From NCBI GenBank assembly GCA_019058445.1, contig JAHPZA010000009.1:658355-722354 (forward strand): a stretch of DNA of 64,000 bases. The letters are read 5' to 3'. The stretch's first letter is position 1, and every line of letters begins with the position of its first letter. Below, piece by piece: positions 7,443 to 43,275 of the stretch. Under the pieces are notes generated by a model, which saw nothing but the letters and a program-made list of their open reading frames with translations, ran no database searches and had not been told where the DNA came from. Position numbers and translations under genes: made by a program. The stretch comes from Promethearchaeota archaeon (lineage in GTDB: Archaea > Asgardarchaeota > Lokiarchaeia > Sigyniarchaeales > SOKP01).

Positions 7443-7454
7443 AAAATTAAAAGA

Positions 7455-7525: not shown

Positions 7526-7813
7526 TTTTTTATTAATAAATAGTATATTAAATTAGTATGATATTCTAATTAAGTTTTTTCTGATTTCCGTAACCTCTTT
7601 TGCCTATTTACATGAGTAAAAATTATGTTAGGGTGTAAACTATTGATTATAACTATAATTAAAATATAAATTATCGACTATAACTCTGCTTGGTCCTTAT
7701 ATATTAAGCAAAAACTTTATTAACAACTTTTTTATTTAGTTTTATGGATAAAAAATCTGTGAAAAAGTATTATTTAATTTATTTTTTCGAAAAATTCCAG
7801 GGTGGATTGAAAA

Positions 7814-10800: not shown

Positions 10801-11713
10801 TCGCCAAGGGATTGAAACTAAACCAACTGAACTTAAAGTAAGAAAAGAAGATGGAACCATTATATGGATAAATTATCACAGTTCTATGATTGTTTTAGAT
10901 GGAAAGATATTAATTGAGTCTATCGCACAAGATATCACAGAAAAGAAAAAAGCAGAAGAATTAATAAAAGAAGAAGTTAAAAAACTAAAAGAATTAGACC
11001 AGATTAAGACAGATTTTATTGATAGGGCTTCTCATGAGTTAAAAACCCCATTAAACTCTATTTATGGAGCTTCAACTTTTCTTATAGATTATTATAAAGA
11101 TTTTATAGATGATAAAGCTAAAGATCTGTTGGAGATCATTAAGAAAGGAGGAGAGAGGTTACTTCAATTAATCGAGGATTTACTTGATGTATCACAATTA
11201 GAATCAGGAAGATTACACTTAAAAACTCAAAAAGAAAACATAGTTGAGATAATTTATGAATGCGTAAATGATCTGAGATACTTAGCAGAAAAACGTCAAT
11301 TAAGTTTCAATCTCAAAATCCAAAACGACTATTATTTAGAAGTGGATAAGATTAGATTCGAACAGGTTATAACGAACTTGATTTTAAATGCTATCAAAAA
11401 TACATTACCTAGGGGGATTATTTCTATAGATATGGAAAAGCATGAAGCCTCTGTAGATATATTAATTAAAGATACGGGTGTTGGATTTACTGAGAAAGAA
11501 AAGGAAAATGCTTTCAAAAAATTTGGTAAGATTGAAAGATATGGTAAAGGCATGGATATTGATACTGAAGGTTCAGGTTTAGGATTGTATATCTCTAAAA
11601 AAATAGTCGAATTACATCATGGAAAAATTTGGATCGAATCTGAAGGAAGAAAAAAAGGATCAAAGGTAATAGTAAAACTTCCTACTAGCCAAGAAAGTTC
11701 TATTCTTTATTAG
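7814..11713 (+). CDS. Multi-sensor histidine kinase (2 GAF-like and 5 PAS-like modules, HisKA, HATPase_c)
   Basis: 1299 aa. Five PAS-end signatures: SRDITEIK, LRDVSEQKKAE, ALDITKRKK, GQDITERRKAE, AQDITEKKKAE. H box DRASHELKTPLNSI. ATPase G boxes DTGVGF and GSGLGLYISKKIVELHHGKIWIES. The track start is TTG at 7814; ATG at 7835 (MEEIKSK) is an alternative start. Confidence 0.9.
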   Translation: MIELAYVMEEIKSKLNKLKLKSEFLKNKINSEFNKDCDEFKALIEDIEDVLDRVNTDMIRDDFEHKLEFEGTISNILSRFVGIYDYDSAINTSLADIGVLSGASRSYLFLFSEDNKKMSNTHEWCSEGVSPQIDFLQNLSMEYYHWAIEKLESEGIIYIKDVSKIPIEAEAERQEFERENIKSLINIPLKIKGKLSGFIGFDNVRKTGKWDKRNFDLLRVSSQIIANVIERKRAEQELKNLNEKLEETVEERTKELRESEEKYRLISEDSDDLIAIYDENFNIEYQNKSTHSRILGYDSHKLRKKNFRYSIIHKDDFENYVNVVREGYNKGNFKHQIRLKQKDGVFLWFEVRGKTYFDKYHRKKILVVSRDITEIKSVEQKLRESEKNFRNLINNVSDVIMKVDLDGKINYTSPQIYDLFGYEEKELIGYHPFDFIHPEDLPKFEKLRKDAPNYRESYTFEFRAKHKKGHYISIFAKGNIIREKGKVRIIGVLRDVSEQKKAEIELREKTATIESIFRAAPTGIGMVVDREIKQVNNRFCELVGYSSNELIGKNAKIVYASEKDYDYVGKEKYDQIKEHGIGTVETQFKRKDGKIIDVLLSSVPINPKDLSAGVTFTALDITKRKKIEDKLRDRSKKLEILNRIITESNKAKDLSLLLEEILSSTLELMNFDGGGIYLVDKSSGTAEIVCHEGLSYDFINTVKKVNIDDPPYKIVFIQGQPVIAEDFLDFSPFIAKKGNIVSLASIPLIGKDGIIGALNLASKTHHYFSREEEDILQSIGRETGTIIQKILAEHKLVKEREKASLYLNLVDVIVVTLDIKGNISLLNKKGYDILEYEEGELIGKNWFENCIPPDKRDGILEYFKGLMSGEINVIPFYENPVYTKNGNEKLISWSTIILKDKSENIIGSLSSGQDITERRKAEENLRESEEKYRHLFESSPHAIILTNKEGIVKDFNMATIKMFGYRKDEVIGKNYTDLRTFTPDQMSYFIKTYKKLRQGIETKPTELKVRKEDGTIIWINYHSSMIVLDGKILIESIAQDITEKKKAEELIKEEVKKLKELDQIKTDFIDRASHELKTPLNSIYGASTFLIDYYKDFIDDKAKDLLEIIKKGGERLLQLIEDLLDVSQLESGRLHLKTQKENIVEIIYECVNDLRYLAEKRQLSFNLKIQNDYYLEVDKIRFEQVITNLILNAIKNTLPRGIISIDMEKHEASVDILIKDTGVGFTEKEKENAFKKFGKIERYGKGMDIDTEGSGLGLYISKKIVELHHGKIWIESEGRKKGSKVIVKLPTSQESSILY

Positions 11714-23933: not shown

Positions 23934-24791
23934 ATGATTGAGTTTGTTATCATTGCTATTTTACAGGGATTGCTTGAATGGCTCCCTATCTCTTCTTCTG
24001 GAACAGTAATGATTGTTGCAATCAATTTTTTTGGCATATCTCCTAAAGAGGCTTTTAGTCTTGCAATATGGTTACATTTAGGTACGGCCTTAGCTGTTAT
24101 CGTCAAATTTAGAACAGATTTCGTTGAAATCTCAAAAGCATGTTTTCCACAGGTATTCGGGGAACCGGAAGAACTTGTAAGGAAGAAAAGAAATTGGCTA
24201 ATAATAGCAACTATAGGCACTGGTATTACCGCTTTACCACTTTATTTTTTGTTTAAAGTAATATTAATCGGAACTTTCACTGCCTTTCAAGGAGATATAA
24301 TAACATTGATCATCTCCGGCTTACTAGTAATGACTGGAGTAGTTTTACTGAAATTTAAAAAAGTATATGGAGAGAGGGAATTAAATGATACGAATAATAA
24401 GCAAATAAAGAAAGAAAGCATGGTTTCGGGATTGGCCCAAGGAGTTTCAATCCTCCCCGGGATATCAAGATCGGGTATGACAATTTCTACAATATTATTA
24501 AAAAATTATGACCAAGACACGGCATTGAGAATGAGCTTTTTAATGTCTGTTCCAGCAGTTTTTGCATCAATTATAGTTGATTTTATATTTGGAGAGGGCT
24601 CAGTTTTTGGAATCTTAGATCCCCTCACAATTCTTATAATAACTTTTGTTAGTTTTGTAGTAGGGTATGTATCTATGGAAGTATTACTTAAATTAGCTCT
24701 GAAAATTAATTTTGGGTATTTCTGTATTATTTATGGAATAATTGCTTTTATTATAATAATTCCTTTTTTGCTTATTTCAAACGTATTTTGA
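23934..24791 (+). CDS. uppP: Undecaprenyl-diphosphatase
   Basis: GLLEWLPISSSG and PGISRSG motifs, in an 8-TM-like profile. Confidence 0.9.
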   Translation: MIEFVIIAILQGLLEWLPISSSGTVMIVAINFFGISPKEAFSLAIWLHLGTALAVIVKFRTDFVEISKACFPQVFGEPEELVRKKRNWLIIATIGTGITALPLYFLFKVILIGTFTAFQGDIITLIISGLLVMTGVVLLKFKKVYGERELNDTNNKQIKKESMVSGLAQGVSILPGISRSGMTISTILLKNYDQDTALRMSFLMSVPAVFASIIVDFIFGEGSVFGILDPLTILIITFVSFVVGYVSMEVLLKLALKINFGYFCIIYGIIAFIIIIPFLLISNVF

Positions 24792-24794
24792 ATT

Positions 24795-25682
24795 TTAAAA
24801 TAAAGTCAGAATAAAATCAGCCAAAATGTTCTCAATATTCTTTATTCCCCTTAACCCGGGAAAATCATTTAAATCAACTAAATAAAGCTTGTTGTCTTTA
24901 ACACTTTTAATTAAATCAAATCCAAAAATTTTAAGCTTTAATTCTCTTGAAAGAATTTTTGCTAAAATTTTCATCTCTTTGGGAACCATAAACTCATCCC
25001 TAGAAATTGTATCGACATCTATTGCGTCTGGACTATCTCTCATGTAAATATAAATTGGATTTTCTCTCTTAATTCCAAAGATTTTGTCTCCTACAACGTA
25101 TACTTTACGGTCAATACCATCGCATTCAATGAATTTTTGGACATATACATCGTAATATAAAAAGTTTGAATACATTTTGCAGAATTTATCCACTTCATCA
25201 ATTTCTCTGACTAAAAAATTAAATCTCATATATTTATCGTGCTGAAAATGGCTTTTAATCACAATTGGTAATTTTTTTACTGCCCATTCTTTAAATCTAT
25301 CAACATCTGATAAGTTTTGAGTCCATGACTTAGGCAATGAAATATTCGCTAAAATCTCTGAATTATCCTGAAGAATCTTTCGAAAAGCGTGATCTAAGGC
25401 AACCTTGTTACGCGTTAATAGGACAGTATCAACATCATGCAAAGTGGGGATATCATGAAGTTTTGCGTAATGTAATAAATCTATTGAACATTCACTTCTT
25501 ACTTTTACAATGAGCATATCAACCTTATTGAGTAGGTTTGATGTATTTTCTAAATCAAGAAAATCTTTAGTTGGATCATGTAAGATTAAGTTAGCATCTT
25601 TAGTTTTCTTTTTTAGAATAGGTATAACTGTTTTTATTACATCATGCTCTAATTTCGCAGAAAAAACTACTTTTTTAACCAT
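24795..25682 (-). CDS. ATP-grasp kinase, inositol-tris/tetrakisphosphate kinase (ITPK1)-like
   Basis: RKVYVVGDKIFGIKRE and IFGFDLIKSVKDNKLYLVDLNDFPGLRGI align by eye with human ITPK1 YKVFVVGESYTVVQRP and LFGIDIIINNQTGQHAVIDINAFPGYEGV. Confidence 0.7.
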   Translation of the reverse strand: MVKKVVFSAKLEHDVIKTVIPILKKKTKDANLILHDPTKDFLDLENTSNLLNKVDMLIVKVRSECSIDLLHYAKLHDIPTLHDVDTVLLTRNKVALDHAFRKILQDNSEILANISLPKSWTQNLSDVDRFKEWAVKKLPIVIKSHFQHDKYMRFNFLVREIDEVDKFCKMYSNFLYYDVYVQKFIECDGIDRKVYVVGDKIFGIKRENPIYIYMRDSPDAIDVDTISRDEFMVPKEMKILAKILSRELKLKIFGFDLIKSVKDNKLYLVDLNDFPGLRGIKNIENILADFILTLF

Positions 25683-29527: not shown

Positions 29528-30553
29528 TTATTTTTTCTGTGGTTCTACAATGATCTTAATCCATTTTTCTCTATCATAATATCTGAACGCATCTACAGCT
29601 TCTTCTAATGTAATTCTTTTAGTAATTAGACTTTCTAAATCTAATTTTTTGCTAGCAATCATATCAAGTGCATCGTCCCAGTAATCTTTATCCGCCTTTG
29701 AATTTACCATTGCCTCAGGATATACTAATTCCACACCTTTTTTTCGGCAATTTACATAAGGTATATATTGCATCTTTTGAGCTCCGAATACAATAACTCG
29801 ATAACCTGATTTAATTATATTAATGGCATCAAGAAGCGTGTCATTATGACCAACCATTTCAAAAACAGCATGCGCTTCACCAAAATTCTTTTTAATCTCA
29901 TCTGCCACTGAGTAATTTCCATGAGTTGCTCTAGAAAATTCATCTGGATTAAACACTTTTGCGCCCCATTTTTTAGCAATATCTCTTTTATGATGGTAAG
30001 GCTCGCTTGCAGCAACCTCAATGTTATTGTTTAATAATATTTTTGTAAGTATTAGTCCTATTGGTCCAAGCCCAATAACTATAGCCTTCTTCTCACCTTC
30101 AATTTTATCAAGTTCAGCTCTCTCATAGCAATTTATTGCACACCCAACAGCATCAGCAAATGAAATCTCGTCCATAGTAAGATCATTTCTTACAATCGGA
30201 ACTCCTCCAGTTAATTCATCTTTCCCATGTCCAACTACATTAACATGAGTAGAATATTCTGCATAACCTTGCCCCATTCTTGCTAAATGATCCCCAACAT
30301 TTATTTTACCCTCTAAATTTTTCCCAACTTCTACGGTAATTGCTCCAGTTTCATGCCCATGTCCTCCCGGCTCATGAGCAATAATCCAATGATCTCCTTC
30401 AAATATCCCTACATCGCTTCCACAAATACCAACAGATATCATTTCGGCCAAAATTTGGTTAGGTTCGGGTTTAGGGATATCGAGCTCTATAAGCTTAACT
30501 ACCCAAGGTTCTGGAAATAACAAGGCTTTCATTTTTCCTTCCATATAACTCAA
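29528..30553 (-). CDS. Zn-dependent medium-chain dehydrogenase/reductase (sugar or polyol dehydrogenase-like)
   Basis: GICGSDVGIFEGDH and GHGHETGA (catalytic Zn ligands). Rossmann VIGLGPIGL. Confidence 0.85.
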   Translation of the reverse strand: MSYMEGKMKALLFPEPWVVKLIELDIPKPEPNQILAEMISVGICGSDVGIFEGDHWIIAHEPGGHGHETGAITVEVGKNLEGKINVGDHLARMGQGYAEYSTHVNVVGHGKDELTGGVPIVRNDLTMDEISFADAVGCAINCYERAELDKIEGEKKAIVIGLGPIGLILTKILLNNNIEVAASEPYHHKRDIAKKWGAKVFNPDEFSRATHGNYSVADEIKKNFGEAHAVFEMVGHNDTLLDAINIIKSGYRVIVFGAQKMQYIPYVNCRKKGVELVYPEAMVNSKADKDYWDDALDMIASKKLDLESLITKRITLEEAVDAFRYYDREKWIKIIVEPQKK

Positions 30554-30589: not shown

Positions 30590-33397
30590 TTATCTTCCTC
30601 TAATACCGTCAATTAACATCATTATTAAATCGCCAATACTCAAGGGGAGTCCCCCTCCGTGTTCTTCTTCTTGCGCATTAGGATCAAAGTTTTCGTTTAC
30701 TTTTCTTACCCATTCTAAATAAGATAAGTTCATTAAATCATCAATTTCGTATTCTCTTTTAATAGATTCTGCTATTTCTCCATAATGAGAGAGATTATTT
30801 ACTAAATTCATTTTATCTTTTTTTCCAATAATAACTAATGGTGGTAATGAAAAATGATCTGCAAGAGACTGTACAGATTCAGGAGGTTTATCTCCTTTAT
30901 AGGGTGCGATGATTAAATCAAAATTCAAAGTTTTTCCATTATAAGTTGGTGCTGTTGGTTGGTCTTGATGAGTTAAGAATTTTTCTGCTATTTTATAGGC
31001 ACGACCTGAGCCTGTTGTCCAATAATGTAATATTTTTCCATAATAATTTCCAAAGGGATTAATTCGAACTTGTTGACCCTTTTTATATCCATCTCCAAAC
31101 CCTTTATCTTTAATCTTTAAAGGACTAAAAGCAAAGTTAGATGCTTTTAACGAATTGAATCCTACTAATATACCATTTTTTCTGTCTGAAACAGCCATCC
31201 ATCCATCAGAGATATTACTTACAAGGTTATCTATATTTTTATTCCGAGAATCGACTTCCCGTATATCAAGATCGAAATAAGATACTCTACCTAAAAAATT
31301 TCTTTTCCATATTCTTAATGGTTCATTATTGCCGATAAGATTAGGTTTAATTTCACATGGGATAACTTCTTGCCATCTATTATCATATTTCTCAGCAACA
31401 TAAGCATGACCATCTTCAATAGTACTTTCACCTATGATGTCGCACAACTTCATTTTAACATCCACGAACATCGCTGGAACCCCTGAATATAGGATAAGTA
31501 TTTTTTCTGATTGGACGTCATATCCCCTTAAAATTTCAAATTTACTATAAATTTTAATTGATGCTGAAAATCCATCACTTCCATCTCTCAAAATCTCAAT
31601 CCTATTACGGTTTGAATGATATCTCTTTCCATTTTTTGATTCTCCGAAGGTCACAGCAGATTCTAAAAAATTTGGGCATGCTAAATCTACTCCATTAAAA
31701 TTAAATGAGGTTATTAGACCATTATCATTCAAAATTAATTCTATTATTTCATTTTGCAGAGATCGAATTGTTGCTTTGATTTTTCCGTTATTCTTTAGAT
31801 TGTTAGCTGAATTATTTAATGATAATTTAGAAAGATAGATCTTTTCTGATTCGAATACTTCTTTTGGAACTATAGCTTCAAGAAAAAGCCCATGGTTCGA
31901 ATTGTCATCATATAATCCGTATTTAAAATTTCTTAAATTCAAACCTTTATCATTATTTAATAATTCATTTGATAGTTCCTGAGGGAGTTTTGTTTTTATA
32001 AGAACTGATGAATTAATCTGACTTTTTTCTTGTTCTGTGATGCCCCTGTTTAGTATAGGGCAAATTATCATATTATAATCATTATTTTCAATCCTATTGG
32101 AAATATATTTAAAAGATTCATCGATTGCTAAATTCACAGCATTTTCAGCAGCATTATGAGCTTTTAAAGCGTAAGCCATTCCGGTTTTGATTCTAGTTGG
32201 ATGCATAAAGGGTACAGATAAACCAAAATTTGTAGTAGAAGCGAGTAATATTTTATTTTTAATATATGATTCCGAAGAATCCTTTTCATTGCGAATTAGA
32301 TTATTAATGTTAGCTTTTTTATTTTCTACCATATTTTGAGAAATTAAAGTATCTGAAATGCACTTTTGCCACCTTGCTCTTTGTCCGATTGTCCATAATT
32401 TAGTATTATCATATTTCTGAGCCCAATTGTAAAATCCATTATTAAGCCCATCAGCAGCATCAGGATACAATGTTGTCTCGCCATGAATTTTGAGTTTGGG
32501 GATAACATCTAATAAGTTTGCGAATTCTACGTAATCTAGTAAATCAACCGCTTCAGCAAATTCAATTAAACCTCTTGTTTTAGGCATCCATTGTAAAAAC
32601 TTAGGTAGTTTTTGTGGTAACCACAAATCAACATCCATATCAAAATTGAAGAATAATAGGGCATGTCCTGTGATTTCACCTTTTTCTTGCATTTTTCTTA
32701 TCAATTTAAACCATCTTTTTATCGAAAAATAGTCCACTACATCTCCAAAAGCATACATTGGAATCATTATCATCGAGGCATCGGAAATTGATGAATTGAA
32801 TTTTACTAAACCATATCTCTGATTAGTATTTAACCGCGGATTTAAAAAGGGTCTTCCGACGTCAAAAGGATACACACAATAATAAATGCAAATTCCCTCT
32901 ACACCAATTTTATTATAAAGTTCAATCATTCCTTGAGTAAACATCGTTTCTTGAGTACGGGCGTAAGGTGCAATCCTTCCTGGAAATAACTGTTTCAAAC
33001 CAATTCCCATTTCATTCTCTAAAAACCATTCATGATCGCGAACAAATTCTTCACTATCAAGCATTGGTTTCGCAACATTGCCCCAAGATCCAATTAAAAC
33101 TTCATCTTTTCCTTTTTTACATCGCTCAATTACTCGTTCCAATACATCTTGCTGGTACTCTTGTTGAAGTTGTATAGACCAAAAAGTATCACCGTAATCC
33201 CAAGTAATTTTCATATCTTTAAAAGAAAATCCCTTTTCTTCAATTTCATCTAATTTATCAAGAATAGCTCTCATAGTCGTAAGATCAGTTCCGAAGCCAT
33301 CCCTCCCTCTTGAATCTCCCCGATAAGAATGATAATAATTAATATGGGGAGAGATCACAAAAAATATCTTTTTTTCTTTTAAATCCAATTTATTCAT
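30590..33397 (-). CDS. Large divergent GH57-like glycoside hydrolase / glucanotransferase-like protein
   Basis: By-eye collinearity of the N-terminal ~260 aa with GH57 regions: KIFFVISPHINYYH vs INFIFGIHNHQP; KKGKDEVLIGSWGNVAKPML vs KRGQLEIVVAGFYEPVL; ARTQETMF vs WLTERVW (nucleophile Glu); LLFFNFDMDVDLW vs VAVFHDDGEKFGVW. I do not recognise the ~650-aa C-terminal part. Confidence 0.4.
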   Translation of the reverse strand: MNKLDLKEKKIFFVISPHINYYHSYRGDSRGRDGFGTDLTTMRAILDKLDEIEEKGFSFKDMKITWDYGDTFWSIQLQQEYQQDVLERVIERCKKGKDEVLIGSWGNVAKPMLDSEEFVRDHEWFLENEMGIGLKQLFPGRIAPYARTQETMFTQGMIELYNKIGVEGICIYYCVYPFDVGRPFLNPRLNTNQRYGLVKFNSSISDASMIMIPMYAFGDVVDYFSIKRWFKLIRKMQEKGEITGHALLFFNFDMDVDLWLPQKLPKFLQWMPKTRGLIEFAEAVDLLDYVEFANLLDVIPKLKIHGETTLYPDAADGLNNGFYNWAQKYDNTKLWTIGQRARWQKCISDTLISQNMVENKKANINNLIRNEKDSSESYIKNKILLASTTNFGLSVPFMHPTRIKTGMAYALKAHNAAENAVNLAIDESFKYISNRIENNDYNMIICPILNRGITEQEKSQINSSVLIKTKLPQELSNELLNNDKGLNLRNFKYGLYDDNSNHGLFLEAIVPKEVFESEKIYLSKLSLNNSANNLKNNGKIKATIRSLQNEIIELILNDNGLITSFNFNGVDLACPNFLESAVTFGESKNGKRYHSNRNRIEILRDGSDGFSASIKIYSKFEILRGYDVQSEKILILYSGVPAMFVDVKMKLCDIIGESTIEDGHAYVAEKYDNRWQEVIPCEIKPNLIGNNEPLRIWKRNFLGRVSYFDLDIREVDSRNKNIDNLVSNISDGWMAVSDRKNGILVGFNSLKASNFAFSPLKIKDKGFGDGYKKGQQVRINPFGNYYGKILHYWTTGSGRAYKIAEKFLTHQDQPTAPTYNGKTLNFDLIIAPYKGDKPPESVQSLADHFSLPPLVIIGKKDKMNLVNNLSHYGEIAESIKREYEIDDLMNLSYLEWVRKVNENFDPNAQEEEHGGGLPLSIGDLIMMLIDGIRGR

Positions 33398-34625: not shown

Positions 34626-35678
34626 ATGCCAAATAGGATAAAATTAGCAATAGTGGGAATAGGTAATGCTGCTTCGGCTCTGATTCAAGGCATTGAGTAT
34701 TATAAAGATCGTTCCTTTAATAAGGGTTTGTTATATCCTACATTTGCAGGATATCATATAACTGATATTGAGATCTCTGCTGCATTCGATATTTCTGCTA
34801 ATAAAGTTGGAATGGCTCTTAATGAAGCATTAAAATCCAATGAATTACAAATTATTGTAGACTTAAGTAATCAAGATAAAATTGTCTCAATGGGGGTAGT
34901 TAAAGATGGAATAATTAAAGAGACAATTGGAAAGATTAACCCTTCAAATGCTCCATCTATTAATATAGCAGATAAATTAAGGGATTCGGCTACTGAGATT
35001 GTTCTTTGCCTATTACCATCTGGTGCAGATGAAGCAGTGGAATTCTATGCAAAACAAGCGTTAGATGCCGGTTGTGCTTTTATTAATGCTACTCCAACTT
35101 CAATTGCGACAAACAAAACTTTTGCTAAAAAATATCAAGATGCTGGGCTCCCTCTAATTGGAGACGATCTTCAAGATCAATTTGGAGCAACAATTGTTCA
35201 CAAGCTTCTTTTACAACAGATGATAGATCAAGGAGTTGAAATTAAAGAGAGTTATGCCTTAGATGTTGGGGGAGGATTAGAGTCCTTGAATACAATCTAT
35301 CGAACGCGTCATGTAAAACGGGAAATTAAAAGTAAATCTGTAGCTGCTGCCCTCAAAATAAATGCTCCTATTGTAGCAGGAACTTCTGATTATGTTCCCC
35401 ATTTAGGAAATAGTAGGAATTCCATGTTATGGTTAGTAGGACAAGGTTTTTTAGGGTCAGAAATAATAATGGATATTAAAATCCAGACGCAAGACGGGCC
35501 TAACGGAGGCGCAATTTTGATTGACGTAATTAGAGCCACCAAAATCGCCTTACAACAAGGAGCATCGGGGTCGATAAATGAGATATCAAGTTATGGATTC
35601 AAAAATCCCCCCAGACTGATAAGTAACCCAAAAAAAGCGGGAGAGGACTTAGCAAAATTCATTATGGGGATGATGTAA
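34626..35678 (+). CDS. myo-Inositol-3-phosphate synthase family, paralogue 1 (shortest and most divergent)
   Basis: IKLAIVGIGNAASALIQGIEYYK, LPLIGDDLQDQFGATIVHKLL, DVGGGLESLNT, IKSKSVAAAL and QDGPNGGAILIDVIR are collinear with mycobacterial Ino1 (VGVGNCASSLVQGVEYY, GDDIKSQVGATITHRVLAKLF, NVGGNMDFLNM, SKTQAVTS, DSPNSAGVIIDAVR). Confidence 0.75.
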   Translation: MPNRIKLAIVGIGNAASALIQGIEYYKDRSFNKGLLYPTFAGYHITDIEISAAFDISANKVGMALNEALKSNELQIIVDLSNQDKIVSMGVVKDGIIKETIGKINPSNAPSINIADKLRDSATEIVLCLLPSGADEAVEFYAKQALDAGCAFINATPTSIATNKTFAKKYQDAGLPLIGDDLQDQFGATIVHKLLLQQMIDQGVEIKESYALDVGGGLESLNTIYRTRHVKREIKSKSVAAALKINAPIVAGTSDYVPHLGNSRNSMLWLVGQGFLGSEIIMDIKIQTQDGPNGGAILIDVIRATKIALQQGASGSINEISSYGFKNPPRLISNPKKAGEDLAKFIMGMM

Positions 35679-35683
35679 TAAAG

Positions 35684-36844
35684 ATGAGCAAAACGGATAA
35701 TAGAGAAATACGGGTCGCTATCGCAGGATTAGGTAACGTGGCGGCAGCAATAGTAATGGGTATTGAATACTATAAGAATGTAAAGCAAGAAGAAAAATAT
35801 CAAGCAGGATTGATTAATGCTTCTGTAGGAGGATATTTACCCTCGGATATTAAGATCGTAGCAGCATTCGATATAGCAACAACTAAAATTGGAAAAGATA
35901 TTTCGGAAGCTATTTATGCTGAGCCTAATATGTGCCATCCGATTATACTTCCGGAAAATATGCCAAAATCAAATGCATTATGTTACCCAGGTCCTATTTC
36001 GGATGGGTGTTATCAAACTAAAGACTCAAAGGGAAAAATAATTTTTGACACCTATAACTATTTTAAAGCTTATAATGAAAAAGATGTGAAACCAAGTAAT
36101 ATAACTCAAGTATTACTAGACAATAAAGCACAAATTTTAGTTAATCTACTTCCAGTTGGAAGTTATCAGGCTTCACGAATTTATGCTCAAGCAGCTTTGG
36201 ATGCAAATTGTGCATTAATTAATGGAATTCCTGAATTTATTGTCTCAGAGCAAGTCGAAGGCGATAGAGACTGGGTTGCTGAATTCATAAAAAAAGGTCT
36301 CCCCTGTGCGGGAGATGATATTAAATCTCAAGTTGGAGCAACAATCATACATAGAACACTTGCGAAATTATTCTTAGATCGAGGAGTTATTGTTAATGAT
36401 ACTTATCAATTGAATATAGGGGGAAATGGCGATTTCTATAATATGAAATCAGAAGAACGCCTAACCACAAAACGTAAATCAAAAACATCAGCGGTTACAA
36501 GTGTTCTTCCGTATGGAGATAAAGTTGGTTGTAGAATCGGTCCAAGTGATTATGTGCCATTTTTAGGAGATAAAAAAATCTGTTATATTAGAATTAATGG
36601 AACTACATTTGGAGGGTTACCACTTGTTTGTGATATGAAATTACGTGTTGAAGATTCTCCAAATTCAGCGGGATTAATAATTGATCTTATTCGTCAAACA
36701 AGGTTAGCCATAGATAGGGGGATTGTCGGACGTTTGGACAGTATTAGCTCGTTTAGTTTCAAACATCCACATATTCAACCTTCTTCAGATTTTGAAGCAA
36801 AAAAGTGGGTACAAGAATATATTGAGGGTAAAAGAGAGAGATAA
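35684..36844 (+). CDS. ino1: myo-Inositol-3-phosphate synthase, paralogue 2
   Basis: IRVAIAGLGNVAAAIVMGIEYYK, GDDIKSQVGATIIHRTLAKLFLDRGV, QLNIGGNGDFYNM, KSKTSAVTSVL, EDSPNSAGLIIDLIR, FKHP. Starts 5 nt after paralogue 1. Confidence 0.9.
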   Translation: MSKTDNREIRVAIAGLGNVAAAIVMGIEYYKNVKQEEKYQAGLINASVGGYLPSDIKIVAAFDIATTKIGKDISEAIYAEPNMCHPIILPENMPKSNALCYPGPISDGCYQTKDSKGKIIFDTYNYFKAYNEKDVKPSNITQVLLDNKAQILVNLLPVGSYQASRIYAQAALDANCALINGIPEFIVSEQVEGDRDWVAEFIKKGLPCAGDDIKSQVGATIIHRTLAKLFLDRGVIVNDTYQLNIGGNGDFYNMKSEERLTTKRKSKTSAVTSVLPYGDKVGCRIGPSDYVPFLGDKKICYIRINGTTFGGLPLVCDMKLRVEDSPNSAGLIIDLIRQTRLAIDRGIVGRLDSISSFSFKHPHIQPSSDFEAKKWVQEYIEGKRER

Positions 36845-37009: not shown

Positions 37010-38101
37010 ATGGCTAATACAATTAATGTTGCCTTAATTGGACTAGGAGATGTAGCCTCTGCATTGGTACAAGGTGTTTCCAATTATAAAAAAAATCCGG
37101 ATAAGATAATTGGTTTACTACCAGAAATTACCCAATATAGTGTTAATGATATTAATTTTGTTGTTGGTTTTGAAGTGAATTCAAATAAAATAGGAAAAGA
37201 TATGAGCGAAGCTATTTTTGCTGAACCTAATTGTAATATGAAATTATACCCTCCTGAGTTCCTAAATGCCCCAATTTTAAGAGGCCCGATCTTAGATGGA
37301 TTAGACAGTAATATTAAGGATATTGTCCCGGTCTCGAATGGAGAAGAAGCTGTTAGCGTATCTAAAGAGATGAAAGATCGATTAGTCGATGTCGCAGTAA
37401 TTCTACTTCCAACAGGAGCACATAAGGCAGTTAAGTTTTATGCCATGGCTGCTCTAGAAGCTGGAGCATGTGTTATTTGTGGTATGCCCTCCCATGTTGC
37501 AAAAAATCCAGAGATTGTTAAAAAAGCCGAAGAATTAAAATTACCATTAATAGGAGATGATGTAAAGTCCCAAATAGGTGCTACTATAATTCATAGATCT
37601 TTAGCAAATCTTTTTCCAATGAGAGGAGCTATATTGGACCGCACAATCCAGCTCGATTGGGGAGGCTGTTCCGATTTTCTAAATCTCTTAACCCCTCAAG
37701 CAGATGGAAAGTTAGTGTATGAAGAAGGGAAGCGTCAATCCAAAACAGAGTCTGTGGTGGCTAAGCTTCAAAATAAAGATACTGTAGAATGCCAAATTTC
37801 GGCAGTAGATTATATTCCTTTCTTAAAAAACCAAAAGGAAGCATATATGAGACTTGAGGGTCGTATTTTTGGAGGTGCTCCTGTTAGAGTGGATATTACA
37901 ATGTTTGTACAAGACGGTAATAATTCTGCTGGCATTATCGCGGACTGCATTCGCATATCTAAGATCGCAAGAGATAGAAAAATAGGCGGAATTCTGTCTT
38001 CAGCATGTTCATTTTTTATGAAACATCCTCCAGAACAATTAGAAGATTATATAGCCAAAAAACATTTGGTAGAATTTATAGAAGGTAATAGAGAAAGATA
38101 A
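37010..38101 (+). CDS. ino1: myo-Inositol-3-phosphate synthase, paralogue 3
   Basis: INVALIGLGDVASALVQGVSNYK, GDDVKSQIGATIIHRSLANLF, QLDWGGCSDFLNL, QSKTESVVAKL, QDGNNSAGIIADCIR, FMKHPPEQL (compare Mtb Ino1 YLMKSPPEQL). Confidence 0.9.
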   Translation: MANTINVALIGLGDVASALVQGVSNYKKNPDKIIGLLPEITQYSVNDINFVVGFEVNSNKIGKDMSEAIFAEPNCNMKLYPPEFLNAPILRGPILDGLDSNIKDIVPVSNGEEAVSVSKEMKDRLVDVAVILLPTGAHKAVKFYAMAALEAGACVICGMPSHVAKNPEIVKKAEELKLPLIGDDVKSQIGATIIHRSLANLFPMRGAILDRTIQLDWGGCSDFLNLLTPQADGKLVYEEGKRQSKTESVVAKLQNKDTVECQISAVDYIPFLKNQKEAYMRLEGRIFGGAPVRVDITMFVQDGNNSAGIIADCIRISKIARDRKIGGILSSACSFFMKHPPEQLEDYIAKKHLVEFIEGNRER

Positions 38102-38144: not shown

Positions 38145-39113
38145 TTATGTCATGTACGTTCTTGTCTTTAATCTCATAGGGATTCTTTCATCTATCTTTT
38201 GTCTTGCTATCAAAAATTCATAAATATAGTCAGAGATAAGACTTATCGCTTCAGGAATATTTCTAAAACTGGGGAAGTCATTAATATCTATAATATAAGG
38301 AACACCTTCCTCACTAAAGATGTAATCAATTCCAAAAACAGACATACCAAACTTCTTACTTAATCTCAACACTTTTCTTTTCAATTCTTTATCTATAGGT
38401 ACTCTTATATGTACCATTTCATATGGTGTGAGGGGTCTCTGCTTTATTCTGTTATGGGCAGTTATAGATACCACCCATCGGTCTATTACATATACTTTAT
38501 ATACGATATCTATTTTGCCCAAATAATCTTGGAAGAATAACTCATTTTCATCATAATTTTTAACCAATTCAATGAAATCATTTATATTTCTTGCAATACC
38601 AATAACTCGATCTTCTTTAGGTATATCAGGTGCGTTGTGAATATCATGTTTAATAATTATTTTTACTCCATTACTGCAGGCTAAATAAGCGTCTTTGAGA
38701 GAAAAATATGATTTTGGAATAGGTATTTTTTTATATTTTTCCTCTATACGCTTAAAAGTTGCTTTTCTGCTCTCACAGGTCTGAACTGCTTTTAGGCTAT
38801 TGAGAAGAGGTATTTTTGGGGCATAGATTTTAATAGTATCATATATAATCTGATTTTCCTTTTCAGAAAGTAATTTAACAATGATTAATGAAATTGGATA
38901 CTTTTTTATTTTTTTTCGAAAATATTTAATATCAAAAATTCCTTTTTTATTGCCCTTATGAGGTATGAGATTTACAATTTTGATATTATAGTTAACTTTT
39001 GCAAATTTGATGATCTTCTCAAAAATTTCAAGATCCCTATTGCAAATGGCTCCAATATAGATTTTTTTTATAGACATAAAAAAAAATAAGGGAGTTTGAT
39101 ACCTTAAAAACAA
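38145..39113 (-). CDS. ATP-grasp kinase, ITPK1-like
   Basis: YKVYVIDRWVVSITAHNR and SVFGIDYIFSEEGVPYIIDINDFPSFRNIPE (D-x-N-x-F-P signature). The track start is TTG at 39113; ATG at 39077 (MSIKKIYIG) is more likely. Confidence 0.65.
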   Translation of the reverse strand: MFLRYQTPLFFFMSIKKIYIGAICNRDLEIFEKIIKFAKVNYNIKIVNLIPHKGNKKGIFDIKYFRKKIKKYPISLIIVKLLSEKENQIIYDTIKIYAPKIPLLNSLKAVQTCESRKATFKRIEEKYKKIPIPKSYFSLKDAYLACSNGVKIIIKHDIHNAPDIPKEDRVIGIARNINDFIELVKNYDENELFFQDYLGKIDIVYKVYVIDRWVVSITAHNRIKQRPLTPYEMVHIRVPIDKELKRKVLRLSKKFGMSVFGIDYIFSEEGVPYIIDINDFPSFRNIPEAISLISDYIYEFLIARQKIDERIPMRLKTRTYMT

Positions 39114-39284
39114 ACTATCCTATATAAATATATTTATTATTTTTATTGTAATTCGATTCCAAACTAACAGATTTTTGGTTAAGAATTAGATAGAATTATG
39201 AAAAGTTCTTTTAAAATTATGGAAGATAAGCGAACATTGACTATCCTTGAATTTAAATGAAATAAAATATTATTTAAACAGTCC

Positions 39285-40121
39285 ATGAGTAAAGTTAAGA
39301 TTGGAATAATTATTGATAGATATCATCTAGAGCAAAAAGCAACAGAATTTTTAAAGTACTTAAAATTGGTTGCAAATGTTTCCTTGTATATTGAAGAATC
39401 ATATCTTTTAAAATCTTTTGACTCCACTTTTGATGAGGATTTATTTTTTGTCAAGGGTAAGGGAGATTTAATATTAGCCCTTGTTAAACTCATTGAAAAA
39501 GAGACGTCAATACCGGTAATTAATTCCTATAAAGGAATTTGGAATGCTATACATAGGTTCATGAATAGCGTTTTATTAAAAAAAGCAGGAATCCCTGTGC
39601 CTGATTTTTCGTTGATTCCTAGTGAATATCCACCACCCTTTGAATCATATATTATAAAAAATATTATTGATCAAAAAAATTACAAATTCAAACCGAATAT
39701 TGAAAATATAAATGGAGCTATAAAAGTAAGCGATGAGAGGGCTTTAACGGAGATGTATAATGGATTTTATGGAGACATGGGGAATTATCACTATCTCTAC
39801 TATCAAAAATTTATTAAAAGCGAATGGGAGTATAAGATCTACATTATAGGGGAAGATATTTACTTTTACAAGCAAATACCAGTGCTTGTTAATCCTAATA
39901 AAATGGAGTCAAGGCGAAAGATTGCCGAAATTCCAGAATTAAAAGAATTGGCTTTTAAGGCAGTTAAGACAACCGGATTAAAAATTACATCAATAGATTT
40001 TCTTCAAAATAAAAATGGACAGTTCTTCTTATCGGATATTAATTGTACTCCAAATTTCAATTATATTAAGAATGGTCCAAAAATTGTTGGAGAATATTTA
40101 ATAGAGCAAGCTAAAAAATGA
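39285..40121 (+). CDS. ATP-grasp protein, divergent ITPK1-like
   Basis: EYKIYIIGEDIYFYKQ and LKITSIDFLQNKNGQFFLSDINCTPNFNYI. D-I-N is retained, but F-P-G is replaced by T-P-N. Confidence 0.55.
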   Translation: MSKVKIGIIIDRYHLEQKATEFLKYLKLVANVSLYIEESYLLKSFDSTFDEDLFFVKGKGDLILALVKLIEKETSIPVINSYKGIWNAIHRFMNSVLLKKAGIPVPDFSLIPSEYPPPFESYIIKNIIDQKNYKFKPNIENINGAIKVSDERALTEMYNGFYGDMGNYHYLYYQKFIKSEWEYKIYIIGEDIYFYKQIPVLVNPNKMESRRKIAEIPELKELAFKAVKTTGLKITSIDFLQNKNGQFFLSDINCTPNFNYIKNGPKIVGEYLIEQAKK

Positions 40122-40130
40122 TTTAAAGAA

Positions 40131-40946
40131 ATGACTATGAAGATTGGGATACTCTCAAAAAAAACTACTGGCATGACGGGTTTGATGAGAGAATTTTTTG
40201 AAAATGCGGGACACACTGTGAAAATATATACATTGAAAGATTTATGCATAAATGAAGCACTGTTTGAAAATGATTTTTATGTACTTAAATCAAAAAAAAT
40301 AGTGTATATCTATGCTGGTCATTACTTAGAGAAAAATAATATTCCCGTAATTCCAAATCCAAATACCATTTATAATAATAAAAATCGTATAGAGGCACAT
40401 TATTTAATTAAGCAAACAGGCTTAAGGCTGCCCGAATTTTATTATGGAAAAGTCCAAACTTTAAAAGATCAACTTAAAGCAGATGATTTTCCTTTAATTT
40501 TAAAACCAATTATGGGTTCTGGGAGTAGAGGCATAAAAAAAGTAATTTCATTTGACGATTTAGAGCCGAAAAATGATCAACCATTATACTTAGAAAAATA
40601 TATAGAAGGAACTCATTATTTGGTGTATTTTATTGAAAATCAGGTATGCATTTTAGAAAAACCTCCGCTATCAAATGAACATGTAGAAATGAAGAAAATT
40701 TTACTGAATGACAATAATGAAGATATCCAAGAGGTTGTAATCAAATGGAAATCTTATTATAATCTACAATTTGGCCATTTAGATATTGTAAGAGAAGACA
40801 ATACCAATAAAATTTATCTTGTAGATCCGGGTTCTTTTCCCGAATTCTCAAATTGGTGGTATGATGAGAATCCCACACCTAAAATCTGTAATCTTATATT
40901 AAAAAGATATGAAGATTTAAAACATAATAATCATAAAAATATCTGA
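40131..40946 (+). CDS. ATP-grasp protein (generic RimK/ITPK-like); terminal metal-site motif altered
   Basis: PLILKPIMGSGSRGIKKV (ATP-grasp phosphate loop), LYLEKYIEG, and FGHLDIVREDNTNKIYLVDPGSFPEFSN (D-P-G where the others have D-x-N). Starts 9 nt after the previous ORF. Confidence 0.6.
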   Translation: MTMKIGILSKKTTGMTGLMREFFENAGHTVKIYTLKDLCINEALFENDFYVLKSKKIVYIYAGHYLEKNNIPVIPNPNTIYNNKNRIEAHYLIKQTGLRLPEFYYGKVQTLKDQLKADDFPLILKPIMGSGSRGIKKVISFDDLEPKNDQPLYLEKYIEGTHYLVYFIENQVCILEKPPLSNEHVEMKKILLNDNNEDIQEVVIKWKSYYNLQFGHLDIVREDNTNKIYLVDPGSFPEFSNWWYDENPTPKICNLILKRYEDLKHNNHKNI

Positions 40947-40975: not shown

Positions 40976-41956
40976 TTGAATGACCCAGATAAGTTACAGG
41001 ATTTAGAATTTAAGTCCATAACTGATATGTTTGGAAAGCAAAAAGTTAGACTTTATAAAATAAAACATATTATCTTCGACTTTGGAGGGGTAATGATAGA
41101 AAAAACATTTGTTTTAAAGAATCTGTTTGACATTATTGAAGCTGACTTAAAGCTTTCAATACCTCGTACAGAAGATTCCTATTTTAGAAAACTACGAAGG
41201 CAAGTGAGCTCTGGAATCATATCTTCTCGAGAATTTTTAGAAAAAATGCTAGAAAAATATTATTATCCATTTTTGAAAAATGATGGGGCATTACCGGCAA
41301 AAAGGGCAAATGTCGATTATTATTTAGAGCTCTGGTTCCAGATTTATACAGTAGTTACAAAATTTTCAAAAGATATGGCCGAAATAATTGAAAGATTTCA
41401 TCAGGCCGGTTATATTGTAAGTTTAATGTCCAATACATACGATATTCATGCAAGATCAAATGAATTGAGGGGTTTTTATGATGCTTTTGATAATGTATAT
41501 CTCTCAAGTGAAATAGGGCTTATTAAACCCAATATCGAGAAATACAAATATGTTTTATCAAAATTAAATACGGAACCTAAAAAATGTATATTTATTGATG
41601 ATAAGCTTGTAAATCTTATCCCAGCACGTGAGTTAGGAATCATTGTTATTAGATTTGAGTCATTAGAAAAATTTAAAAAGCAATTGAACCAAATAGGGAT
41701 AAAAAAACTCAGACCTAATCTTAGGCATGAAATAAAAAAAAAGTATAAAAAATATAAAAAGGTTAAAAAGTCTTATAAAAAAGCGAAACGAGCATACAAA
41801 AAGGCTAGGAAAGAATTCTTAAAAAAGAAGAGAAAATCCTCCAAAAGACATAGAGAATTTCGAAGAAGATATGCCGAATATAGGAAGAAAAAACAGGAAT
41901 ATAAAGAAGAAAAAAAGAAAAAGAAGGAATTAATCTCCAAAGTTAGTATTGCTTAA
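40976..41956 (+). CDS. HAD-superfamily hydrolase (subfamily IA-like) with a ~90-aa polybasic C-terminal extension
   Basis: Motif I IIFDFGGVMI (Gly at the Asp+2 position), motif II LMSNT, motif III GLIKPN, motif IV FIDDK. Tail is KKKYKKYKKVKKSYKKAKRAYKKARKEFLKKKRKSSKRHREFRRRYAEYRKKKQEYKEEKKKKKE. Confidence 0.8.
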   Translation: MNDPDKLQDLEFKSITDMFGKQKVRLYKIKHIIFDFGGVMIEKTFVLKNLFDIIEADLKLSIPRTEDSYFRKLRRQVSSGIISSREFLEKMLEKYYYPFLKNDGALPAKRANVDYYLELWFQIYTVVTKFSKDMAEIIERFHQAGYIVSLMSNTYDIHARSNELRGFYDAFDNVYLSSEIGLIKPNIEKYKYVLSKLNTEPKKCIFIDDKLVNLIPARELGIIVIRFESLEKFKKQLNQIGIKKLRPNLRHEIKKKYKKYKKVKKSYKKAKRAYKKARKEFLKKKRKSSKRHREFRRRYAEYRKKKQEYKEEKKKKKELISKVSIA

Positions 41957-41988: not shown

Positions 41989-43275
41989 TTATAAGAAATC
42001 ATTAATGAAATAATCATCACAAAATTCAAGGCGATCTAATGTCCAATCTTTTAATTGGTTGATATAATTCTCAGAATTATATGTTTGTTTCCAGAGATTC
42101 AGATCTTGTTGTACAAAAGGTCTGCATTCACTGTAGATATTAGATATTGTGTTGGAAATTGATTCATTACTCCAAATATTATTCCGCAAATCATTCCAGC
42201 GGTTAGTGCAATTTTGCCTAAAAGTCTGATTATATAACAATCTATCATACAGTCTGTTCTTTGAGCATATCTCTTCTTGTATGACTGTAGACGTATTATC
42301 ATATATAGTTGTGGAATTTTGTCCAAAGCTAATATCAAAATCCCAAGGAATGAGATAAAAGAGTGAATCATGCGAATTTCTTGCAATAAAATAATTTTTA
42401 TCCCAAAAGTCTCCATGGAGCATAAAAAAATTAAACAGAAAAAAATCAATAAGATTAATTTCGCTAAAATTAGCAAAAATTCCATTCTGAGGGTGGTAAA
42501 AAGTGTTATTTAGAGAATTATTAACAAAATCTATCAATGGGGGTAAAATTTTATCCTTTACATAAAATCCCTCATCTTCATTCGGCCAATCTTGTTCCCA
42601 CCGGTCTTTTTCATAAACTGTAAAGTTTGTATAATCTTTAGCTTGAAATATGACGCTTGAATTCGTATAATTCGTTGCGGTCGTTTCATCTATACCCAAT
42701 AATTTACGATCATTCTTCTCAGCAAGTAAATAGAGACCTTTATAATCCCCATTAAAATATAATAATACATATCTCGATCGTGGAAGAATTGCAGTTGGAT
42801 TATTTTCTAATAAAAGATTTCGCCAAAGATTAAATGACAGTTTAGTTTTCAGTCGAGTATAATCATAATAACTGGCAAACAATTGCCAATCGTCATCATC
42901 TCTCATCCCAAGTAAAGGTTCTCCTTTTGATAATTGCAAACGATAACCTTTTTTTGGATATGTTGCGCTTGTTTCACCTCTTATTTTAATTTCGGCTTCT
43001 AATGGATCAATTCTTTCAGAAGATTCTTCACTATCTAATTCAAATACACAATTAGAATAGTTTTCGTTATCAAGGGCTTCATAACAGGTAATATATATTG
43101 TTGGAAAGTCTGGATGGTCATCTGAGGAATCAGATTCTTCTTCTGTCGGATATGGGAAATATATGAAAAAAAGAACTGTGGAAAGAGTAATAATGCTTAT
43201 TAAAATTAGAGATAATAAATTTCTTCTACGTCGGCGCGGTGGGTGCCTATCTACAAAATCTATTGCCTTAACCAT
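41989..43275 (-). CDS. Membrane-anchored CotH-family (atypical kinase fold) protein, predicted extracellular
   Basis: N-terminal RRRRR plus a TM helix. IKIRGETSATYPKKGYRLQL, YVLLYFNGDYKGLYLLAEKNDRK and LIPWDFDISFGQ match my memory of CotH signatures. There are many N-x-S/T sequons. Confidence 0.65.
   Translation of the reverse strand: MVKAIDFVDRHPPRRRRRNLLSLILISIITLSTVLFFIYFPYPTEEESDSSDDHPDFPTIYITCYEALDNENYSNCVFELDSEESSERIDPLEAEIKIRGETSATYPKKGYRLQLSKGEPLLGMRDDDDWQLFASYYDYTRLKTKLSFNLWRNLLLENNPTAILPRSRYVLLYFNGDYKGLYLLAEKNDRKLLGIDETTATNYTNSSVIFQAKDYTNFTVYEKDRWEQDWPNEDEGFYVKDKILPPLIDFVNNSLNNTFYHPQNGIFANFSEINLIDFFLFNFFMLHGDFWDKNYFIARNSHDSLFYLIPWDFDISFGQNSTTIYDNTSTVIQEEICSKNRLYDRLLYNQTFRQNCTNRWNDLRNNIWSNESISNTISNIYSECRPFVQQDLNLWKQTYNSENYINQLKDWTLDRLEFCDDYFINDFL

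Follow-up and report, generated by a model that had tools for sequence, protein, structure and literature searches.

Four genes for ATP-grasp proteins, designated here as G1 to G4, span no more than 16 kb in a 64,000-nucleotide stretch of the Promethearchaeota archaeon contig JAHPZA010000009.1 (positions 658,355 to 722,354; hereafter the window), together with genes for myo-inositol-1-phosphate synthase (MIPS, also called IPS) and a HAD hydrolase. Our comparisons indicate that the four proteins represent four old orthologous families, not recent or close paralogues, and that two of them, G1 and G2, are most probably genuine kinases of the ITPK1 type. We consider it probable (roughly 0.6) that the locus is an Asgard gene cluster for soluble inositol phosphates (InsPs), in which MIPS, the four ATP-grasp enzymes and the HAD hydrolase would act in the steps proposed below. 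Inositol polyphosphates have long been seen as a eukaryotic hallmark, and the case for a soluble pathway older than eukaryotes is built mainly on the Asgard homologues of ITPK1. The "four ITPK1 homologues" of such a locus are not equivalent, two appearing to be real ITPK1 relatives and two separate, equally conserved ligase-like families, and the four ATP-grasp genes and the HAD gene behave as one conserved module. The genes, in a window that is AT-rich (about 30% GC), are as follows.

24795-25682, minus strand: G1, 295 amino acids (aa); predicted ITPK1-family ATP-grasp kinase, the most eukaryote-like of the four
34626-35678, 35684-36844 and 37010-38101, plus strand: three tandem MIPS genes (Pfam Inos-1-P_synth 58.8, 110.7 and 74.3 bits; NCBIfam TIGR03450 E 1e-74 to 1e-97)
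38145-39077, minus strand (the open reading frame (ORF) extends to a TTG at 39113): G2, 310 aa from the ATG at 39077 or 322 aa from the TTG at 39113; predicted ITPK1-family ATP-grasp kinase
39285-40121, plus strand: G3, 278 aa; uncharacterised ATP-grasp family, apparently between ITPK1 and the RimK/LysX type
40131-40946, plus strand: G4, 271 aa; uncharacterised ATP-grasp family, the outlier of the four
40976-41956, plus strand, same direction as G3 and G4: HAD-IA hydrolase, 326 aa (Pfam Hydrolase/HAD_2)

Relations among the four proteins

A first-pass annotation of the window, made from the sequence alone, had listed the four ORFs and quoted five peptide strings from them. All four ORFs were found as listed, and all five strings were located in the genes named, with their nucleotide coordinates checked. 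That annotation called the genes paralogues, a term that holds at the deep family level and fails for close copies. Pairwise BLAST identities were at most 26%, and G4 and G2 did not detect each other by BLAST. Profile-profile alignment with HHalign joined G4 to G3 over the full length (96.8%, E 2e-10) and G3 to G2 more weakly (77%, E 2e-5), and gave only 2.7% for G4 and G2. G1 acted as a hub, since its hidden Markov model (HMM) matched G2 at 8e-15 and G4 at 3e-7; the HMM of G3 matched G1 at 4e-11 (35 bits) and G4 at 4e-10 (32 bits). When the family HMMs were run on the window, they matched these four ORFs only.

The best database matches were proteins from metagenome-assembled genomes (MAGs) of Promethearchaeota (Lokiarchaeia-type Asgard); for G2 and G3, entries with 100% identity exist. 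G2, G3, and G4 each retrieved 340-430 homologues, of which the top 100 or so were 53-91% identical and came almost entirely from Asgard MAGs. The G1 family was narrow, as E<1e-30 left only ten clusters of 50% identity, and its weaker matches included many proteins resembling human ITPK1 at 1e-25 to 1e-51. Because the identities among the four do not exceed 26% and each has its own strongly conserved orthologues, the genes are not recent copies of one another. For the residue analysis below, orthologues 53-91% identical to the query were aligned (G2, n=50; G3, n=51; G4, n=50; G1, n=49, the last from fetched genome loci).

Similarity of the four families to ITPK1 was graded. Against an ITPK1 profile of 15 sequences, in which the human sequence was identical to PDB 2Q7D over residues 1-335, HHalign gave 99.7% (E 2e-25) for G1, 98.6% (E 8e-16) for G2, 96.2% (E 2e-9) for G4, and 95.5% (E 1.4e-8, 255 columns) for G3. 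With single sequences as targets, the values were 94%, 95%, 0.75%, and 74% for G1 to G4 against human ITPK1, and 70%, 0.6%, 11%, and 91% against ArgX. "Graded divergence", the term of the first-pass annotation for the motif, is thus a fair description, as a gradient from ITPK1-like to ligase-like over four ancient families.

G1 and G2

G1 and G2 are predicted to be true ITPK1-type kinases. Both reached the cut-off of Pfam PF05770 (23 bits), G1 with 52.8 bits and G2 at the borderline with 24.7 bits; precomputed PF05770 matches are listed for the majority of G2 orthologues. In searches of the PDB, G1 matched ITPK1 and otherwise only, weakly, RimK, and the G2 family profile matched ITPK1 alone (E 4e-7). 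The RimK-family model TIGR00768, whose cut-off is 143.4 bits, gave G2 a score of 26.6. The ATP-grasp fold of both proteins is assigned by sequence homology to the ITPK1 structures.

Pocket residues were mapped by sequence alignment and not on model coordinates. Among the 15 diverse ITPK1 sequences, K157, H167, K199, S214, D281, D295, and N297 (numbering of human ITPK1, HsITPK1) were invariant, and R212 was present in 14. The residues K143, H148, K193, R206, D256, D270, and N272 were invariant in the G1 orthologues and correspond to HsITPK1 K157, H167, K199, R212, D281, D295, and N297, respectively. In G2, the invariant residues were K143, H147, R157, K194, D251, D264, and N266; H147 and R157 lie in a longer loop. 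R157 aligned at the position of H167 with H147 nearby, and K194 aligned as the equivalent of K199, whereas no G2 residue aligned clearly with R212. A lysine at the position of HsITPK1 K59 was found in all four families, as part of a K-x-K pair in G3 and G4.

More distant G2-like ATP-grasp proteins were also seen in Streptomyces, Embleya, Yinghuangia, Ktedonobacteraceae, and Chloroflexota (loci L070-L081). They were 23-32% identical to G2 in the best segment, which covers the C-terminal two-thirds, and occurred as tandem pairs in L076 and L077.

G3 and G4

No Pfam family reached its cut-off on G3: PF05770 scored 12.7 bits against 23 and PF08443 scored 19.7 bits against 21. TIGR00768 scored 48.7 bits on G3 and 36.4 bits on G4 against the cut-off of 143.4. 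For G4, Pfam ATP-grasp_3 scored 24.6 bits against 23.2; the Pfam scan gave no PF05770 match to this protein, and 4 of the 120 G4 orthologues listed carry one. In profile searches of the PDB, the best matches of G3 were ArgX (3e-4), ATP-grasp ligases of ribosomally synthesized and post-translationally modified peptides (RiPPs), and RimK, and ITPK1 did not appear at E<=10. The corresponding search with G4 returned ArgX (2e-7), PurK (6e-7), LysX, biotin carboxylase, and Ddl; ITPK1 appeared there with E-values no better than 0.04-0.09.

AlphaFold2 models of G3 (pLDDT 90.2) and G4 (pLDDT 92.3) gave hundreds of ATP-grasp matches in Foldseek at E<=1e-12 with TM scores of 0.65-0.78. G3 matched LysX and ArgX at 2e-15, PPIP5K2 and maize ITPK1 each at 7e-14, and RimK at a similar level. 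The top 50 matches of G4 included ArgX, LysX, Ddl, RimK, PPIP5K2, and PurK, and no ITPK1 was among them.

By alignment, G3 keeps K125, K184, and the D/D/N set of the metal site; R212 is replaced by an invariant Gln197 beside Lys196, and the His is missing. The HHalign alignment and the strand pattern of the AlphaFold2 model differ over whether K125 or K136 is the ATP lysine of G3, and K125 was chosen, being invariant (51/51) where K136 is found in 33/51. G4 keeps K125, and its segment K177-P-P-L-S-N aligns to R212-PSLKN of HsITPK1, so that R212 is replaced by K177; K199 is replaced by L/N164 and H167 by R/K133. K125, the glycine-rich loop, D218, and D232 of G4 were invariant and E155 nearly so, and the family has two further invariant residues, His162 and His216, with no counterpart in the other three. 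The conserved basic residues of G4 comprise K10, R11, K53, K55, K177, and R/K133. G4 can thus be read as a hybrid: its loop is of the ligase type, its KPPLSN segment resembles ITPK1, Gly stands in place of the metal-site Asn, and His216 is invariant.

Metal-binding motif and glycine-rich loop

Four of the quoted strings had been read as the C-terminal strand-loop that binds Mg and ATP in ATP-grasp enzymes. When aligned by HMM with ArgX and with the ITPK1 proteins of human and maize, the strings agreed with this reading and contained the second and third metal ligands; in the HMM and HHalign alignments their D-x-N aligned with D295/N297 of HsITPK1 and with E-x-N of ArgX. The positions of the motifs are as follows.

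24846-24881, minus strand: Mg motif of G1, LVDLNDFPGLRG (aa 268-279)
38259-38294, minus strand: Mg motif of G2, IIDINDFPSFRN
40029-40064: corresponding motif of G3, LSDINCTPNFNY
40818-40853: metal motif of G4, LVDPGSFPEFSN, with Gly in place of Asn
40503-40532: glycine-rich loop of G4, KPIMGSGSRG (aa 125-134)
40776-40784: invariant His216-x-Asp218 of G4

Each family carried its own variant, DLND, DIND, DIN[CS], and DPG[ST], respectively, across its 49-51 orthologues. The metal-site residues were distributed as follows.

G1: D256, D270, and N272 invariant; next residue Asp, invariant
G2: D251, D264, and N266 invariant; next residue Asp, invariant
G3: D238, D251, and N253 invariant; next residue Cys in 38 and Ser in 12
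G4: D218 and D232 invariant, G234 in 50/50; next residue Ser in 35 and Thr in 13

Thus the Mg triad equivalent to D281/D295/N297 of HsITPK1 is present in G1, G2, and G3, and G4 is the exception, with N297 replaced by G234. The loss of this Asn from the protein encoded at 40131-40946, already noticed in the single sequence, therefore extends to all 50 G4 sequences. DPG was also found in two archaeal homologues outside Asgard with about 30% identity (loci L065 and L066), and EAG in a third.

The canonical glycine-rich loop, said earlier to occur only in the last of the four proteins, likewise turned out to be a family trait. The pattern K-P-x-x-G-S-x-G-x-G was found in G4 alone, as KP[IL][ML]GSGS[RK]G, and its residues G129-S130-G131-S132-[RK]-G134 were conserved in 49-50 of 50 sequences; no such loop was found in the 49-51 orthologues of each of G1, G2, and G3. 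In its place these families have K-S-H-x-Q-H-D-K-x-x-R (G1), K-x-x-x-H...R (G2), and K-N-x-x-D-Q-K (G3). Since each family keeps its variant unchanged throughout its 49-51 orthologues, the variants are not a product of chance or drift; the motif differences are fixed family signatures under purifying selection and not steps of decay.

These results bear on a further reading, that the four genes are redundant recent duplicates and that their motifs differ through decay or a relaxation of selection. Four ATP-grasp genes in 16 kb, one of them without a canonical metal ligand, could give that impression. However, pairwise identity is at most 26%, dozens of genomes hold orthologues of each copy that are 53-91% identical to it and in which its variant motif is invariant, and the Gly variant recurs in the non-Asgard homologues at about 30% identity. 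We regard this reading as extremely improbable and rejected it, as it is refuted by the conservation of the motifs within each family. The proposal of functional diversification rather than redundancy is supported: the families are separate and conserved, have their own fixed active-site signatures, and are retained together beside MIPS in dozens of genomes. The diversification may take either form suggested in the first-pass annotation, different positional specificities for InsPs or a ligase activity.

Genomic context

One genome per species was scanned, which gave 576 relatives of G2, and the best 80 loci were analysed. The arrangement HAD<-G4<-G3<-|->G2<-MIPS...G1-><-BacA/UppP was shared by about 55 loci of Promethearchaeota; proteins of the cluster-bearing genomes were 53-65% identical. 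The divergent orientation of G3 and G2 was kept in every related locus. Of the three MIPS copies of the window, which are mutually 32-41% identical, the third is the one conserved beside G2 in all related loci. The HAD gene directly follows the 3' end of G4 in most Promethearchaeota loci. In the window, the intergenic gaps are 9 bp between G3 and G4 and 29 bp between G4 and the HAD gene; the G3 and G4 ORFs overlap in many related loci. About 9 kb lies between MIPS and G1 in this genome and holds MFS, DHDPS-like, ADH, and SDR genes and an ORF of 935 aa; a variable insert is often found at this place elsewhere (the 935-aa ORF, Zn-ADH, DHDPS-like, and MFS genes).

Three divergent loci (L064-L066, about 30% identity) had the compact order MIPS<-G4<-G3<-|->G2, with MIPS inside the G3-G4 transcription unit (in L066, the block at 7087-11646). 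By their labels only, one of these contigs belongs to Thermoplasmatota and two to an "uncultured archaeon". The module of MIPS, G2, G3, and G4 may therefore not be Asgard-specific. A gene for a xylose-isomerase-like TIM-barrel protein, the fold family of IolE/IolI, follows G2 in divergent loci (L066). Because G3 and G4 form a conserved block with MIPS, they are tied to inositol phosphate as strongly as context allows.

The HAD protein scored 76 bits on TIGR02247, below the cut-off of that family. Its motif I reads D-F-G-G-V, lacking the second Asp, in at least 90% of orthologues, and motifs II-IV are kept. A C-terminal tail of about 85 aa had a median of 47% Lys/Arg in 47 orthologues; speculatively, a tail with so many positive charges would be fitted to binding a polyanion, for example a higher inositol phosphate.

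Start codon of G2 and its probable promoter

G2 had been described as transcribed divergently from G3 and G4 across a spacer of 171 bp. The divergence stands, and the spacer is most likely longer. The relevant features are as follows.

39078-39284: spacer separating the divergent genes G2 and G3, 207 bp if G2 starts at the ATG and 171 bp if it starts at the TTG
39121-39128, minus strand: TATA-box-like element of the G2 promoter, TTTATATA

The recorded G2 product has 310 aa and starts with MSIKKIY, and an exact-protein look-up gave no 322-aa product starting at the TTG. More distant G2 orthologues begin about 5 residues before a conserved IYIG. The element TTTATATA, which we take to be an archaeal TATA box from general knowledge of archaeal promoters, lies 44 nt upstream of the ATG at 39077 and 8 nt upstream of the TTG at 39113, so that transcription, given archaeal promoter geometry, would start downstream of the TTG. 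Among 18 related loci compared, most have a block of the pattern (A)ATCAATATATTTATATA or AATCAATATATTTATATA at a fixed distance from the G2 ATG, some 44-50 nt before it; in the window this block reads TTTATATA. On the basis of the recorded product, the N-termini of the family, and the conserved upstream box, G2 most likely starts at the ATG at 39077, which leaves a divergent spacer of 207 bp.

The promoter-like block persists, strongly conserved, in loci L020-L063, where G2 protein identity is only about 60%. Directly before the G2 ATG, many loci share TAATAGGGTTTTT; this lineage has CAAACTCCC.

Comparison with known systems

Desfougères et al. (2019, PNAS, PMC6900528) reported that four ITPK1 homologues, LcIKA-D, flank IPS genes in Lokiarchaeum. 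They modelled LcIKA-D on ITPK1, with catalytic residues conserved and extra basic residues in LcIKA-C, noted Arg156 in LcIKC, and observed that LcIKC partly restored inositol hexakisphosphate (IP6) in plc1-delta yeast. The present locus is the orthologue of the LcIKA-D/IPS cluster, and its arrangement is thus already published: both have four ITPK1-like ATP-grasp genes beside IPS, and the same families recur at 55-65% identity in many Promethearchaeota. It differs in its three tandem MIPS genes and in the roughly 9 kb of extra genes between MIPS and G1. The published work treated all four proteins as ITPK1 homologues, whereas two pass the Pfam cut-off here and two are ligase-like by profile and fold. 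What is new is that two of the four appear to be distinct, uncharacterised families and that the module appears to extend beyond the Asgard archaea. An invariant loop Arg lies at own-position 156 in 35 of 50 G2 orthologues, and no other family has Arg156; since Arg156 matches the G2 family alone, G2 is probably the LcIKC orthologue. Among the literature that followed PMC6900528, we found citations only and no biochemistry on the other three archaeal enzymes. According to a preprint of 2026, eukaryotic ITPK1 has Asgard sequences as its sister group.

Compared with eukaryotic ITPK1 (PF05770; human 2Q7D/2QB5, maize 7TN5, and E. histolytica 1Z2N), G1 has the full invariant set and G2 most of it, and neither has a glycine loop. 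G2 differs in the replacement of H167 by Arg and an insertion of 4-5 residues in the loop, G3 lacks H167 and R212, and G4 lacks K199 and N297 and has the glycine loop. All four proteins are shorter than eukaryotic ITPK1, without its long insertion after R212.

LysX, ArgX, and RimK (TIGR00768, PF08443; 3VPB, 5K2M, 1UC8, and 4IWX) gave G3 and G4 their best matches among solved structures, both by profile HMM and in Foldseek. In common with them, G4 has the KPxxGSxGxG loop and, behind the metal motif, a "PEF" element. We take [ST]-N-x-x-x-G-G to be the defining motif of this group, as supported by three solved sequences (ANVALGG in ArgX, TNTARGG in LysX, and SNLHRGG in RimK). Unlike these enzymes, G3 and G4 lack [ST]N...GG, the aligned segments being VNPNKMESRRK in G3 and PPLSNEHVEM in G4, each without GG; moreover, G4 lacks E-x-N and G3 the glycine loop. 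The cut-offs of the RimK/LysX families were not reached (23-49 bits against 143-350 in NCBIfam; for LysX TIGR02144, at most 32.5 against 275.6). A partner gene of the LysW or S6 type is absent, and the context is MIPS rather than lysine or arginine biosynthesis. A LysW-dependent LysX/ArgX system was rejected, in view of the absence of a LysW-like ORF from the 64-kb window, scores far below the cut-offs, and the missing motif.

The kinase domain of PPIP5K/Vip1/Asp1 (3T9C, 5BYA, and 8E1H) is a RimK-like ATP-grasp domain that acts on InsPs, and it was matched in Foldseek by G3 at 7e-14 and by G4 at 1e-13. This likeness is at the level of the fold only and no better than that to ligases; a fused histidine-phosphatase domain is absent, and neither G3 nor G4 had a PF18086/PPIP5K Pfam match at E<=0.1.

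In plant ITPK4, a HAD-like domain is fused to the ITPK kinase domain, and this HAD domain has been reported only in plants (PMC7614388). AtITPK4 (7PUP) and the archaeal locus thus share the association of HAD with an ITPK-type ATP-grasp protein, by fusion in the former and gene adjacency in the latter. HAD motif I is non-canonical in both (DES in AtITPK4 and D-F-G here); the archaeal protein differs in keeping motifs II-IV and in bearing the polybasic tail.

Proposed pathway and alternative explanations

From the homology, fixed motifs, folds, synteny, and corrected start site observed here, we infer the substrates, the order of the reactions, and kinase over ligase chemistry for G3 and G4. 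MIPS would convert glucose-6-phosphate to Ins(3)P, and the four anciently diverged ATP-grasp enzymes would use Ins(3)P and what is made from it as substrates. Of these, G1 and G2 would work as ITPK1-type kinases with the ATP lysine, a His/Arg-rich substrate loop replacing the glycine loop, the Lys199 equivalent, and an Asp/Asp/Asn Mg site. G3, with a predicted kinase-type core (Lys, Asp/Asp/Asn, and no glycine loop) and a remodelled pocket (Gln197 for Arg212, and no His), is most likely a further InsP kinase acting on another substrate or position. G4 would bind ATP with its ligase-type glycine loop and metal with two carboxylates plus His216 instead of Asn; keeping the ITPK1-like [KR]-P-x-L-x-N, it would probably phosphorylate an InsP at a hydroxyl or, in the manner of PPIP5K, at a phosphate. 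The HAD hydrolase with its polybasic tail would trim or recycle a phosphorylated intermediate.

Several points weigh against such an InsP pathway. Profile-HMM searches and Foldseek rank ArgX, LysX, Ddl, PurK, and RiPP ligases above ITPK1 for G3 and G4, and residues invariant or nearly so in ITPK1 are missing from both (K199 and N297 from G4; H167 and R212 from G3). A single archaeal class supplies most of the synteny, which could therefore in part be gene order passed on by descent and not functional linkage. The mapping of LcIKA-D to G1-G4 rests on one residue number; moreover, among the Lokiarchaeum homologues LcIKC alone was assayed, and its rescue was partial (PMC6900528).

The ranking of ligases above ITPK1 raises the question of whether G3, G4, or both are new RimK/LysX-like ligases that form carboxylate-amine or phosphodiester bonds, with only G1 and G2 as kinases and an inositol-derived conjugate or solute as the product. 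The best PDB profile matches of both proteins (ArgX, LysX, RimK, PurK, Ddl, and the RiPP ATP-grasp ligases) point this way, as do the Foldseek top 50 of G4, mostly ligases and without ITPK1, its canonical ligase-type KPxxGSGSxG loop, its HHalign probability of 91% to ArgX against 74% to HsITPK1 as single-sequence targets, and its His216, which stands at the place of Arg255 of Ddl. Set against these, scores of 23-49 bits fall far short of the cut-offs of 143-350, the [ST]N...GG of ArgX, LysX, and RimK is absent from G3 and G4, and G3 has no glycine loop of any kind. Furthermore, the window has no LysW-like gene and the G3-G4-HAD operon, with gaps of 9 and 29 bp, no room for one; G3 and G4 align at about 96% with the ITPK1 family profile in HHalign; and PPIP5K is a RimK-like ATP-grasp enzyme that serves as an InsP kinase. 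We therefore consider new ligases unlikely. The first-pass annotation had named, as the outcome that would count against it, a placement of the four proteins in unrelated ATP-grasp families with known non-inositol substrates. This was found in part: G3 and G4 are nearest to LysX/ArgX/RimK/Ddl/PurK-type ligases by profile and fold, but with scores far below the cut-offs and without [ST]N...GG, and G1 and G2 fall in the ITPK1 family.

G4 might instead be a catalytically impaired partner of G3, a pseudoenzyme or regulatory subunit kept for complex formation. The loss of the Mg-binding Asn (Gly in 50/50) and of the Lys199 equivalent (Leu or Asn) would fit, and the 9-bp gap between G3 and G4, with overlapping ORFs in many loci, suggests coupled expression. 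However, the ATP-binding elements of G4 (K125, the glycine loop, D218, and D232, with E155 nearly so) and His216 are strictly conserved, and such residues are usually lost in pseudoenzymes. Active ATP-grasp enzymes without this Asn exist, namely those of the PurK/PurT type with E-x-[AS]-P-R, and PurK is among the best sequence matches of G4. An impaired G4 is thus improbable.

The InsP kinase reading of G3 and G4 can also be extended, in a form that we hold to be doubtful. G3 and G4 might have founded two archaeal ATP-grasp families for InsP chemistry that ITPK1 does not perform; G4 might form a phosphoanhydride, giving inositol pyrophosphates (PP-InsPs) independently of PPIP5K, or a phosphodiester, with the HAD hydrolase acting on the product. 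Given its occurrence in a contig labelled Thermoplasmatota, the module may be older than the Asgard archaea, and eukaryotes would have inherited its ITPK1 branch only.

Other observations at the locus

Nearly all related genomes have a single MIPS gene, the orthologue of the third copy here, and three copies were found elsewhere only in locus L002 (83% G2 identity). Those two additional copies may differ functionally by now. The 935-aa ORF (30590-33397) had no Pfam match at E<=0.001; about 10 related loci have it in the MIPS-G1 interval too, frequently accompanied by a Zn-dependent dehydrogenase (29528-30553 here) and an MFS transporter. A CotH-family kinase gene (41989-43275) adjoins the HAD gene here and in L061, and is absent from that place in most related loci.

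A locus labelled "Candidatus Nanopelagicaceae bacterium" (L046; DATKTW010000070.1) contained a full Asgard-type cluster of G4, G3, G2, MIPS, MFS, G1, and UppP genes with 53% G2 identity, and is probably a mis-binned archaeal contig. G1 is convergent with a gene for a BacA/UppP undecaprenyl-diphosphatase homologue 3 bp away (23934-25682 for the pair), and this pairing is retained in about 40 related loci.

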